Origin: a virus
Virus record (IMG/VR): IMGVR_UViG_3300009160_000036
Location: 14,597-78,596 of that record
Length of the DNA stretch: 64,000 bases
Direction: 5' to 3' (one strand)
The notes below the pieces were generated by a model. The model did not search any database. It had not been told where the DNA came from and worked only from the letters and a program-made list of their open reading frames with translations. Below, piece after piece: positions 1,127 through 63,127 of the stretch (position 1 is the first letter of the stretch; each line of letters starts with the position of its first letter). Position numbers and translations under genes: made by a program.

Positions 1127-1161
1127 CAACGTAGTAGGGGTGGACAGACTGCCATCCACAA

Positions 1162-1755
1162 ATGGCAAGAGGCTACTCACAGTCCAGAAGCGAAAGCGCC
1201 CCCGATGGCAGAGCCAAATGGGAAGCGATGCAGGGCAAGAAGAGCATTGAAGCTCTTGCCCGCGTCAAGACCCGCCTTGGCAATGGCGACGTGGGCAATG
1301 GCGTCCTCGCAGATGGGAAACTGACCCTGCGCGACGATGACATCAAGTATCTCACGGAGAGCATGATTGGTCCCAAGAACGAAATCTCCGACATGTTCGA
1401 CGAAGGCTATCCCGGTAAGACTAATTACAGGGCATACGACGCGGTGCAAACCCTCCACTTCTATCCCGAAAACACCGACAAGTTCGCTGGCGACATGGCT
1501 GGCTACATCGAGTCTGCCGCCTTCAAGCTTGAACCTAGAGACTATACCAACGACGCCAACTCTGGTGAAGCATACAATCCGGGCAGGGAGTTTGTCGAAG
1601 TTGACCCAGAGGTCCTTCAGGCAGACTACTTGTTCGCATTTGGCGTCGAGCTGGATGACAACTCGGCGAAGCGCCTAGCAGAGTCGTTCCGGGAAGCCCT
1701 TGGCGAGTCCATCGAGCAGTGGGCTGAAGACCGAGAAGAAAGACGGAGACGCTAA
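1162..1755 (+). CDS. MARG-tag protein 1 (acidic, unknown function)
   Basis: Starts MARGYSQSRSE; TGGACA element at 1141. Confidence 0.85.
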   Translation: MARGYSQSRSESAPDGRAKWEAMQGKKSIEALARVKTRLGNGDVGNGVLADGKLTLRDDDIKYLTESMIGPKNEISDMFDEGYPGKTNYRAYDAVQTLHFYPENTDKFAGDMAGYIESAAFKLEPRDYTNDANSGEAYNPGREFVEVDPEVLQADYLFAFGVELDDNSAKRLAESFREALGESIEQWAEDREERRRR

Positions 1756-1758
1756 TTT

Positions 1759-2316
1759 ATGGCACGAGGATACTCACAAGCAAGGTCTGAAAATCTTGAT
1801 GCTGGATACAGGCTCAAGACTTTTGGCGAGAACGAGAAGCAAGGTCGGGTAGAAAAACTTGACCGGCTCGTCGAGGGGAAATACATCACCGCCAAGGCGG
1901 CCGAGGTTCTTAAGGAAGACGGGTCGCAACATGATGGTCGTTATTACAATGAGTCCTCCTTAAAAAGGACGTTTGGAAAAGACTTTTTCAAAAAGGGTTG
2001 GGTTCAAGAAAAGAGTGACTTCATCCCCAATGCCGTGATAGAGTGGAAGAATCTTGGTGGACAAATCTTTTACAAGGTTAAAGACATAGAGATGTTCGGT
2101 GGCGTGCCTTACCAGAAGGACGGCAAGTATGTCGGAATGACCTACCTTATGTCGCTTGACGAAAAGGTTCTTGCCGAGAACGGAGGCAGATACAAAACGA
2201 TTAAAGAGGCGATTGATGTTCTGGAGACAAACAGCCAGATTTCCCAAAAGCAGTCGGGCGATGCAATGCAGTCTGCATACGAAGCTGCTGGAAGCCCTCG
2301 TGGTTGGTGGGAGTAA
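1759..2316 (+). CDS. MARG-tag protein 2
   Basis: Starts MARGYSQARSE, 3 nt after the previous stop. Confidence 0.85.
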   Translation: MARGYSQARSENLDAGYRLKTFGENEKQGRVEKLDRLVEGKYITAKAAEVLKEDGSQHDGRYYNESSLKRTFGKDFFKKGWVQEKSDFIPNAVIEWKNLGGQIFYKVKDIEMFGGVPYQKDGKYVGMTYLMSLDEKVLAENGGRYKTIKEAIDVLETNSQISQKQSGDAMQSAYEAAGSPRGWWE

Positions 2317-2347
2317 GCCTAGTCGTTGACAGCGACCCAAGAACACT

Positions 2348-61448: not shown

Positions 61449-61464
61449 CAACCGCCAATAGCAC

Positions 61465-62778
61465 ATGGCCAACAGTAAAAAACAGTTATGGATTGCGCCT
61501 ACAACGGGAAATGTGTATGACAGTCTTAATCTCTCTGCCGATGCCCCAAGCCTTAATTTCACCCAAGGCGATTCTGTGGACATTGAGCTGCACCTGTGTA
61601 AGGCGGTAGATGACACATTGGTTGAAATAGAGTTTCCGGTAGACGCGTCTGTCAAGCTTGCCATAGGACGGCGCGACGCCGCACCGCTCACAGGAAACTA
61701 TGTGATTACGGTGGGCGCAAACCAAACCACCTTGGCGGCAGGAGCCGGAGCGGATGCCATTGAAACGGCATTGAACCTGAACCCTACAATCTTGGCAGAA
61801 GGCGGGCTTGATGTCACGCCCCTGTCGGCGGTAATGGTCCAAATCAAGTATCGCACAACCGGAAGTAAGACTTCAATGACGGTGGAAACCTCTGACCTTT
61901 TCCCAACCTCTTATGGCAAGCTCATTACAATAAGAGCAGGAGATTCTACTCACCGCGCCACGTTCTTTCTTAAAGTTGCTCAATCACCGGTAGTCTATCA
62001 AACTCAATGGGACAGCATTGAGTCTGTTGAGCCAGTAGCGGCAACCATCAAGACAATCGGCCTCGGCTACAAACGTATCGAGTTCAACCCCGCCCCTTCC
62101 ATCGGCAGCTGGACAATTTCGACAACGCCAAACGTATGGCGAGCATGGAGGCTTCAAGCCAATTGGGGTCTTGCTGGTCAATTTACCACAGTAGATGCTT
62201 GGAATAGTGTTACGAGCCTAGTTGTGCCGGCTGTCGCGCAAGATAGCGACTTTGAGTATGTGGCATCTGCGGCCGACGTTACGGCCAACAAGATGTATGC
62301 AACGTCTGATTACTTTCAGCCCAAGATTAAAGCCCTTGGCGATGGGGTCTATGATGTCATTTGGGGCTTTTACCCAGATTGGCTGCCGCCAGACACGGCC
62401 TATTATGCCCAAGTTGCGAACTTCAAAGTCCCTCCGGTCAACTTTGCTTATCAGTTGTCGATTGACGCGTCGGGGCTAAAGCCAAGAAAGGGCTTTACGG
62501 CTACTCTCAATCTTAACTCTGCCGAGGTTGAATACCTACTTTCGGGAGACGCATCCGTTGATGCTTCATTGGAAATCGAAGTAACCACAAGCGGAACGAA
62601 GCAGACTATCCTGATGACAGAGTGCGTCATTAAAAATGACATGATTGATGGATACGCATACAGCCCTATCGTGCTGGATGTGGCGACCATTCCAGATGCA
62701 CCCTCTAATGGAGTATTTTACGGCCGGAAGAACGCTGGGTGGACACCTCTCACAGAGATAGACGGAGGAAGCTTCTAA
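61465..62778 (+). CDS. Tail-associated protein, paralog of the 59466 N-terminal region
   Basis: TQGDSVDIELH...LAIG...QSPV...LNLNSAEVEYLL...NDMID; C-terminal DAPSNGVFYGRKNAGW. Confidence 0.7.
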   Translation: MANSKKQLWIAPTTGNVYDSLNLSADAPSLNFTQGDSVDIELHLCKAVDDTLVEIEFPVDASVKLAIGRRDAAPLTGNYVITVGANQTTLAAGAGADAIETALNLNPTILAEGGLDVTPLSAVMVQIKYRTTGSKTSMTVETSDLFPTSYGKLITIRAGDSTHRATFFLKVAQSPVVYQTQWDSIESVEPVAATIKTIGLGYKRIEFNPAPSIGSWTISTTPNVWRAWRLQANWGLAGQFTTVDAWNSVTSLVVPAVAQDSDFEYVASAADVTANKMYATSDYFQPKIKALGDGVYDVIWGFYPDWLPPDTAYYAQVANFKVPPVNFAYQLSIDASGLKPRKGFTATLNLNSAEVEYLLSGDASVDASLEIEVTTSGTKQTILMTECVIKNDMIDGYAYSPIVLDVATIPDAPSNGVFYGRKNAGWTPLTEIDGGSF

Positions 62779-63104
62779 TGACCACATCGCCCTACTCACA
62801 GAGAGTCATCAAGCAAGGTTCTACCTTTACGGAAGACGTGCCGGCGTCCATTGCCCAGAGCCTTGGTCTTACTGACTTGGTGGGAGTTACGGTTGCCTCC
62901 TCCATCGTGACCAACGACGCGGTAGAGCATCACCTAGTGGTGACTATCCCTGACACCTCCGTCCTTACCTTCAACATCAGCTCGGCAACAGCCGGATGGA
63001 AGATTGGCGACGCTAATTGGGACATTAAGTTCACCTTGCTTTCGGGCAGGGTCATCTACACGGATACTATTCCCGTCAAAATCATCAAGCACTTCACCTC
63101 CTGA
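62778..63104 (+). CDS. Small tail-associated protein
   Basis: IKQGSTF...WDIKFT...VIYTDT. Confidence 0.6.
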   Translation: MTTSPYSQRVIKQGSTFTEDVPASIAQSLGLTDLVGVTVASSIVTNDAVEHHLVVTIPDTSVLTFNISSATAGWKIGDANWDIKFTLLSGRVIYTDTIPVKIIKHFTS

Positions 63105-63127
63105 GTGGACACACCTCCAAGAATACT

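Follow-up and report, generated by a model that had tools for sequence, protein, structure and literature searches.

A short sequence recurs immediately upstream of many start codons in a 64,000-nt stretch of viral DNA (the window; bases 14597-78596 of one 78,596-bp virus contig, IMGVR_UViG_3300009160_000036), which raises the question of what this sequence does. The element has the consensus g-TKGACA-N5-C-M-A-N4-Y-R (K, T or G; M, A or C; Y, pyrimidine; R, purine), with a core unit of 14 bp. An initial annotation, made from the DNA alone, had offered two readings, a compact promoter or activator site producing near-leaderless mRNAs and a signal for translation initiation. We favor the first, with a probability of about 0.62: the element would be a compact phage-specific promoter that extends from -20 to -6 and heads ~27 transcription units. 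The second reading is opposed by long and variable distances to the ATG, by an intragenic copy, by the terminators that precede several copies, and by a pyrimidine-purine (Y-R) step at a fixed distance downstream.

The element is real and abundant. All 21 sites first listed, 20 on the + strand and one on the - strand (11877), are present, and the base counts given for them are exact, with A at position 14 in 21/21, C or A at position 13 in 21/21, and C at position 12 in 16/21. The reported spacing, ATG 13-16 nt past the hexamer, and the two near-palindromic copies (20381 and 44422) are likewise confirmed. At every listed site the hexamer is close to TTGACA (TTGACA, TGGACA or ATGACA) and thus resembles a sigma-70 -35 box. 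The strict pattern TTGACAN5CMA has 13 matches, exclusively on the + strand, against 1.32 expected, a number reached in 0/100 shuffles. Searching all 78,596 bp for the core TKGACA-N5-NMA gives 30 copies on the + strand and 3 on the - strand, against 5.0 +/- 2.1 (maximum 14) in block shuffles. Eighteen of the 30 + strand copies lie 19-22 nt upstream of the ATG of an open reading frame (ORF) of at least 50 aa. Among 2,572 ATG triplets, those with a core 19-22 nt upstream number 18, and 18/18 open ORFs of at least 50 aa. There is a gene downstream of 27/30 + strand copies, with ATG as its start codon every time; only about three + strand copies look like chance, and one copy falls in the RNA region discussed below. 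Copies that had not been listed before start at 28699, 36537, 37602, 40072 and 50233, and four more are found in the 14.6 kb left of the window.

The element could simply be part of the context of a start codon, but its placement and conservation reveal a self-contained unit instead. The 14 bp are intact at distances of 19-22, 25-28, 33, 49 and 61 nt from the ATG, the longer distances being found before five genes (25-28 nt) and before the scaffold (33 nt), capsid (49 nt) and protease (61 nt) genes. In 28 related IMG/VR records (portal identity 58-88%, G+C 42-58%), orthologous genes retain the element upstream, while the five-base spacer and the sequence between element and ATG differ from one to another. 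When 73 distinct ATG-proximal sites are compared, information is confined to the columns G(-1), T, T/G, G, A, C, A, and to C, C/A, A at positions 12-14. All relatives that contain the capsid gene have the element ahead of it, with a leader of ~24-45 nt from the predicted start and the Y-R step at a constant offset; ahead of the scaffold gene, it lies 25-36 nt from the ATG. Five longer relatives display a strand bias over their whole records (23/4, 12/5, 15/1, 17/3 and 16/4, +/-). The copy inside the portal ORF (36537..36550, + strand), a candidate internal promoter for the protease gene at 36598, encodes Val-Asp-x-x-Pro and does so with GTT, GAC and CCA in 23/23 distinct sequences, whereas neighboring residues that are also invariant (K, Q, N, G, L, S and P) use 2-5 synonymous codons. 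Because its codons are fixed while neighboring invariant residues vary synonymously, selection appears to act on the nucleotides of this copy, which is part of a translated frame with the next start 61 nt away. Finally, there are free-standing genes without the element (12844, 13808, 39330 and 45644), and translation in this phage is therefore not dependent on it.

A second signal, positioned relative to the element rather than to the ATG, suggests where transcription would begin. At offsets 18-19 from the first T, a Y-R step is found in 16/27 window sites against a background of 0.233 (p=6.5e-5), which is the sole peak among offsets 14-20. In the relatives, the purine at offset 19 (R19) is present in 76/89 sites lying >30 nt from the ATG, including the capsid and scaffold sites, and the step is exactly 6 nt past the invariant A irrespective of ATG distance. 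Since a Y-R step is the usual signature of a transcript start, a start is predicted there, and it would place TKGACA at -19 to -14 and CMA at -8 to -6. The frequent ACTATG would then represent a 3-nt leader. A start at the invariant A14, the geometry of phage AR9, was ruled out since the Y-R peak is 6 nt further downstream.

The element is also closely associated with terminators. The four strongest + strand intrinsic terminators (14270..14293, 34553..34576, 41058..41077 and 46034..46053) are all followed by TTGACA within the next 14-35 nt (4/4). Those at 34553 and 41058, the latter after the capsid gene, are directly upstream of the elements at 34595 and 41091 (19 and 14 nt on, respectively), and apart from the element nothing is conserved there between terminator and ATG (34577-34613 and 41078-41110). 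Many relatives have T-runs, the remnants of U-tracts, ahead of the element. After the terminator at 14270, the TTGACA that follows 21 nt on (14314-14341) has a plausible sigma-70-like partner, AATTAT, with a 16-nt spacer. Likewise, the terminator at 46034 is followed by TTGACA at 46088 with a plausible partner, CATAAC, and a 17-nt spacer (46088-46116), and then by the TGGACA element at 46105. Because the canonical geometry from 46088 also starts at the ATG of gene 46126, this gene may have two overlapping promoters.

Lake-water metatranscriptomes contain sequence near-identical to the phage genome, and four of them (X1-X4) were placed on 34001-54000, the small-share runs X5-X12 and stretches without RNA cover being left out. 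An X1 contig from scaffold to capsid starts at 37639, after an uncovered stretch (37336-37638), has a depth of 8.8 (37639-40155) and stops at 41049, immediately short of the terminator; together with an X3 contig that stops at 41047, RNA contigs of two studies end at 41047-41049, by the capsid terminator. An X4 contig starts at 34625, after an uncovered stretch (34217-34624), and X1 contigs also start at 46669 and 50274. These four starts (34625, 37639, 46669 and 50274) are 8-22 nt downstream of predicted starts, and contig starts no more than 35 nt from an element number 4 among the 32 listed (of 111 pieces), against 0.67 expected. We take this as a hint, and only a hint, in support of a promoter.

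Which genes would such a promoter serve? About 20 otherwise unrelated proteins of this phage share the N terminus MARGYSQSRSE (S-x-E ending), which looks like a capsid-targeting or cleavage tag; one of them has an HD (SpoT/Mesh1-like) domain, and the phage also encodes an S49 head protease. These MARG genes are located at 1162-48295 in the window and at 2846-4035 of the genome, left of the window. Twelve of the 20 have an element of their own, and the other eight are 0-27 nt behind a headed gene. On the + strand, the element precedes MARG genes 1162 (1141..1154, TGGACAgactgCCA, 21 nt before the gene and with Y18-R19), 7178 (7157..7170, 21 nt), 8333 (8311..8324, 22 nt), 15039 (15017..15030, 22 nt), 16327 (16305..16318, 22 nt), 46126 (46105..46118, 21 nt) and 46661 (46642..46655, 19 nt, the predicted start being the A of the ATG), and as a variant 4247 (TGGACA, 4225..4238, 22 nt), 18204 (ATGACA, 18182..18195, 22 nt) and 20402 (TTGACG, the near-palindrome at 20381..20394, 21 nt). 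A further copy (2326..2339, +) is 22 nt before the non-MARG gene 2348, which is at the head of the coupled MARG genes 2946 and 3506.

Virion and lysis genes have the element too. It heads gpW/portal (34595..34608, 19 nt before the gpW-like gene 34614, with the A of the ATG as predicted start), the protease gene through the internal copy, the scaffold-like gene (37602..37615, 33 nt before 37635, predicted start ~37621) and the major capsid gene (40072..40085, 49 nt before 40121, predicted start G 40091). In the capsid mRNA leader (window 40086-40120, and L015, L016 and L017 among the related sequences) there is a (T)TAACCCC(T)AA motif, in one to two copies in relatives, which may enhance translation of the most abundant protein of a system that lacks Shine-Dalgarno sequences. 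The sole listed - strand copy (TTGACTgaaagCAA, 11864..11877) is 22 nt before the first gene of a leftward operon, which consists of a 106-aa ORF, an SLT lysozyme, a RuvC-like resolvase and a DNA methylase, and it sits in an 88-nt divergent spacer that is the only possible promoter space of this operon. Further headed genes on the + strand are 41111 (41091..41104, 20 nt), 44444 (the near-palindrome at 44422..44435, 22 nt), 44964 (44942..44955, 22 nt), 48316 (48296..48309, 20 nt) and 50261 (50233..50246, 28 nt), together with the tail genes 54280 (ATGACA variant, 54261..54274, 19 nt, after the tape-measure gene), 59466 (59444..59457, occupying the 22-nt gap ahead of it), 61465 (61445..61458, 20 nt) and 63128 (TGGACA, 63106..63119, 22 nt). 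Primase, RecT, nuclease and SSB, as well as the leftward block 20767-24798, have no element. That cargo (MARG) and virion genes both carry the element, while replication genes and the leftward block do not, supports their co-regulation, and the single regulon proposed at the outset thus holds for 12/20 MARG genes, gpW/portal, scaffold, capsid, neck/tail and the SLT lysozyme operon. We infer that this regulon is expressed late.

The resemblance of the hexamer to a -35 box does not make the element a classical promoter. With TTGACA as -35, the -10 slot corresponds to codons 1-3 (the initial annotation had likewise placed it on the start codon), and there is neither a TAnnnT 16-18 nt downstream nor an A2/T6 hexamer. 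Beyond CMA, no column is conserved. Matches to the sigma-70 consensus promoter (7, 16 and 9, compared with 10.7, 14.2 and 11.1 expected) are not enriched. A sigma-70-type start, ~35 nt past the -35, would fall 13-16 nt inside the ORF, and the RNA contigs at 46669 and 34625 begin upstream of that. A sigma-70 promoter with its -10 box inside the ORF was consequently rejected, as no -10 box is present and the mRNAs would miss their start codon. The sigma-54, sigma-32, extracytoplasmic function (ECF) sigma, MerR and P1 Lpa geometries were discarded by eye for a spacing mismatch. A CRP/FNR-type site (TTGAT-N4-ATCAA near -41.5/-61.5 plus a -10 box) does not match either, as the element is centered 13-15 nt before the ATG and has no accompanying -10 box.

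Two kinds of protein could read the element, either a phage factor that works with the RNA polymerase of the host or a polymerase whose gene is in the ~21% of the genome that is missing (completeness ~79%, CheckV estimate). The RNA polymerase families PF00940 and PF00623 gave no six-frame match in the genome, the PF00940 control being likewise without signal, and six frames contained no sigma region 2 either; the large ORFs correspond to proteins of the scaffold, tape measure and tail. Sigma70_r4 has a single match, at the N terminus of the putative small terminase. Next to terS there is a conserved gene, 28724, whose product was considered as the reader but not retained and which has an element of the longer-leader class 25 nt upstream (28699..28712, +; ATGACA version in relatives). 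Its product displays, by eye, a sigma-4/KorA-like helix-turn-helix (HTH), with a nonsignificant match to KorA (E 0.7). Profile searches in Pfam, PHROGs and PDB found no significant family match for this protein, and its AlphaFold2 (AF2) model is poor (predicted local distance difference test, pLDDT, of 58), with no fold match at E <= 0.001. Its apparent absence from G003 and G005, two contigs of relatives that end at terS, reflects their truncation. The 239-nt spacer that separates the primase gene from gene 28724 contains, at 28627 on the - strand, a leftward TTGACA-N18-TATAGA, which may be an antisense or divergent host-type promoter.

Several observations weigh against a promoter. The partial dyad TTGAC-N4-GTCAA is less characteristic of sigma factors than of dimeric DNA-binding proteins, and the combination of -19 to -14 with -8 to -6 matches no known holoenzyme geometry. 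The ~79%-complete genome yielded neither an RNA polymerase nor a sigma region 2, nor any known late activator. In the 22-nt class, Y18-R19 coincides with the A(-3) of the start context. Many of the sites in relatives are orthologous, and hence their counts are not independent. As for the RNA, contig ends cannot prove transcript 5' ends, depths are 3-12x with 32 of 111 pieces listed, and an X4 contig (37348-38080) runs through the scaffold element.

The rival that fares best, although it is unlikely, is a binding site for a phage DNA-binding regulator rather than a promoter, acting either as a stoperator-like block to elongation by a repressor bound at ~27 oriented sites, as in mycobacteriophage L5, or as an operator or activator site beside an unrecognised promoter. 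The 5-4-5 dyad is only partial in this phage and reaches 5/5 in a few distant relatives, in which palindromy is stronger; it would suit a dimeric HTH protein, and there is the conserved HTH gene beside terS. The consensus of the L5 stoperator, read on the opposite strand, also contains TTGACA and then a C-rich block. Features of L5 sites that recur here are asymmetry, a length of 13-14 bp, >20 copies, a location in short intergenic spaces and an orientation with transcription (PMC9283540); even the copy inside the portal ORF is compatible with such a role. However, neither an integrase nor a repressor was found in the ORFs scanned (~79%-complete genome), RNA contigs begin and expression rises just past the sites, and the terminator-then-element modules (14-37 nt) are too tight for another promoter. 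A Y-R step fixed 6 nt downstream is unexpected for a roadblock site.

It is improbable that the element works at the RNA level by signaling translation initiation in place of the Shine-Dalgarno sequence, through docking of the ribosome or of a protein, or through re-initiation after an upstream stop. The spacing would be right, since 18/30 copies end 5-8 nt before the ATG as a Shine-Dalgarno sequence does, and the element often occupies the entire 16-25-nt gap between the preceding stop codon and the ATG. The genes it heads lack a Shine-Dalgarno sequence, as the initial annotation stated, but this is not special to them, because no gene of the genome has one and leaders are A/C-rich. Association of a phage motif with start codons also has a parallel in the start-associated sequences (SAS) of cluster K mycobacteriophages (PMC3203893). 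Yet conservation extends to copies 33-61 nt away from the ATG of the best-expressed genes and to the one within a translated ORF; the element also follows terminators, where no upstream ribosome arrives, and genes 12844, 13808, 39330 and 45644 are expressed units without it. Moreover, no single partner would pair with both T and G at position 2, and an RNA stem between the outer TKG and CMA triplets was rejected since the two do not covary. An equally slim chance goes to an RNA processing site, at which polycistronic late transcripts would be cleaved into short-leader monocistronic mRNAs by an endoribonuclease of the host or the phage: it explains the RNA contigs that start behind sites, the unequal levels of neighboring genes, the orientation bias and the constant Y-R position, but sites right after strong terminators would have little substrate, no stem is conserved in this phage, no nuclease candidate was found, and the hexamer is the host-type -35 word of a cultured relative, phage P8625, which argues for recognition at the DNA level.

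In the promoter reading that we prefer, transcription would most likely start at the purine 6 nt past the invariant A. Two thirds of the units would then yield mRNAs with leaders of 0-3 nt, typically 5'-ACUAUG, and five units leaders of roughly 6-9 nt, while scaffold, capsid and protease would have leaders of 14, 30 and 42 nt. In a host that is probably verrucomicrobial and in which Shine-Dalgarno sequences are not used, the 5'-proximal AUG could serve as the initiation signal, and genes without the element could be translated by coupling or from A/C-rich spacers within the same transcripts. MARG cargo, head, neck and tail genes and the lysozyme operon would thus form one regulon.

The genome in which this takes place has a lambda-like head module, composed of a gpA-type large terminase (30310-32157), the gpW-like gene (34614-34862), a lambda-family portal (34862-36601), the S49 protease (36598-37605), a 555-aa coiled-coil scaffold-like protein (37635-39302) and a P22-like major capsid protein (40121-41035). 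The tail region encodes a tape-measure-like protein of 985 aa and tail genes, and other genes encode a primase/helicase, RecT, a PDDEXK nuclease, SSB, a RuvC-like resolvase, the SLT lysozyme and several DNA methylases. Among cultured phages, the closest is Verrucomicrobia phage P8625, which has 27% portal identity and a gene set much alike (gpA terminase, lambda-type portal, ClpP-type protease, P22-like coat, RecT, PAPS reductase, RuvC and primase in common). Because of this kinship and of the near-identical sequence in lake-water metatranscriptomes, the host is probably a freshwater verrucomicrobium. Two prophage-directed scans of genome contigs for the host produced a sole match, a 1.5-kb contig (L030, RHCX01000167.1, 1470 bp) with a portal fragment 50% identical to that of this phage, binned in the metagenome-assembled genome (MAG) of a Nitrososphaeria archaeon, most likely a binning error and not a host signal. 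Three related records (G003, G004 and G005, the IMG/VR records behind L009, L004 and L026) are rated 100% complete by CheckV, yet they hold part of the gene set and all end at terS; they are fragments of larger genomes, which makes completeness estimates for this clade unreliable.

At the extreme left end of the genome (L029, 44-338) there are three tRNA genes, tRNA-Met, tRNA-Arg(TCT) and tRNA-Gln(TTG), and the record is therefore probably cut within a tRNA/RNA array. In the noncoding region between terL and gpW, an X4 contig of ~130 nt (34087-34217) reaches a depth of 264, against 5-67 for phage genes, which points to a very abundant small RNA. Relatives have tRNA genes in the matching region, and an Rfam scan of this RNA region (32-34.7 kb) returned nothing relevant. 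No element was found ahead of any tRNA gene; the tRNAs of relatives lie within processed arrays.

If the promoter reading is true, phages of a poorly studied phylum use a promoter geometry unexplained by any known holoenzyme, and a host-phage system devoid of Shine-Dalgarno sequences picks its start codons via the 5' end of the mRNA. In annotating a whole clade of uncultured lake phages, the element would indicate the transcription units and the true start codons, and, by linking the MARG-tagged gene library to virion gene expression, it would back the idea that these proteins are made for packaging. The 14-mer could be used as bait for isolating its transcription factor. We consider the odds about even that a clade of verrucomicrobial lake phages has a promoter architecture not described before, in which TTGACA and CMA, one helical turn apart, are read by a phage factor or polymerase to generate 0-3-nt leaders and to express virion genes and ~20 tagged cargo genes as one regulon. 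The literature searched contains no description of this promoter architecture or of this phage clade.

Compact promoters close to the start site are already known from phages, T7-like promoters being an example. T4 late promoters, which have TATAAATA at -13 to -6 and depend on gp55/gp33/gp45, resemble it in lacking a -35 element, in lying just upstream of the start and in serving virion genes. In contrast, their sequence differs, the present element reaches -20, and no gp55-like or sigma region 2 protein was detected here. Leaderless middle and late transcripts are made by the Thermus phages phiYS40 and P23-45. The late promoters of jumbo phages, used by nonvirion phage RNA polymerases, are AACA-N6-T-A/G(+1) in AR9 and TATG in phiKZ (PMC5312081). 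Like the present element, they are short and bipartite, abut the start, have no -35 box and occur in many copies, some of them in ORFs. However, they are positioned differently (-19 to -14 and -8 to -6 here), they are used by multisubunit polymerases of the phage, and AR9 leaders measure 26-491 nt, against mostly 0-3 nt predicted here. Of the hallmarks of a phage-polymerase promoter (T7-like, N4, AR9/phiKZ), this genome has an element abutting a fixed (predicted) start and many gene-oriented copies, but no phage RNA polymerase gene was found.

Two other families of phage sites share the layout. The stoperators of cluster A mycobacteriophages (L5, TipsytheTRex) are asymmetric 13-14 bp sites, present in 20-30 intergenic copies oriented with transcription (PMC9283540), a description that fits this element. 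Stoperators silence the prophage via a monomeric two-domain repressor, whereas here no lysogeny genes were found and RNA appears to begin at the sites. The SAS of cluster K, a 13-bp motif of undescribed function conserved across subclusters before unrelated genes (PMC3203893), is similarly asymmetric, in a single orientation, and immediately upstream of many start codons. Unlike our element, which has no GGAG-like core and is also found 25-61 nt away, the SAS (GGGATAGGAGCCC) contains a ribosome-binding GGAG and lies 3-8 bp before the start.

The closest parallel comes from P8625 itself (L031; NC_029047.1). Bacterial leaderless promoters, with a -10 box ending 6-8 nt before the ATG, have a geometry that the present sites do not have, as these are at 18-23 nt, plus the longer classes. 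In P8625, four sites (5412, 10736, 15558 and 22406) read TTGACA-N17/18-TATTGG/TATCTG-N7-ATG, with 36 nt from box to ATG in 4/4, and can be predicted to be textbook leaderless promoters. The two phages thus differ in geometry, canonical in P8625 and 19-22 nt without a -10 box here, but they have in common the TTGACA word, the genome-wide lack of Shine-Dalgarno sequences, and an ATG at or beside the predicted start. The four TTGACA-N17-TATTGG-N7-ATG cases of P8625 suggest that the host enzyme reads TTGACA as a -35 box and that leaderless mRNAs are normal in this group.

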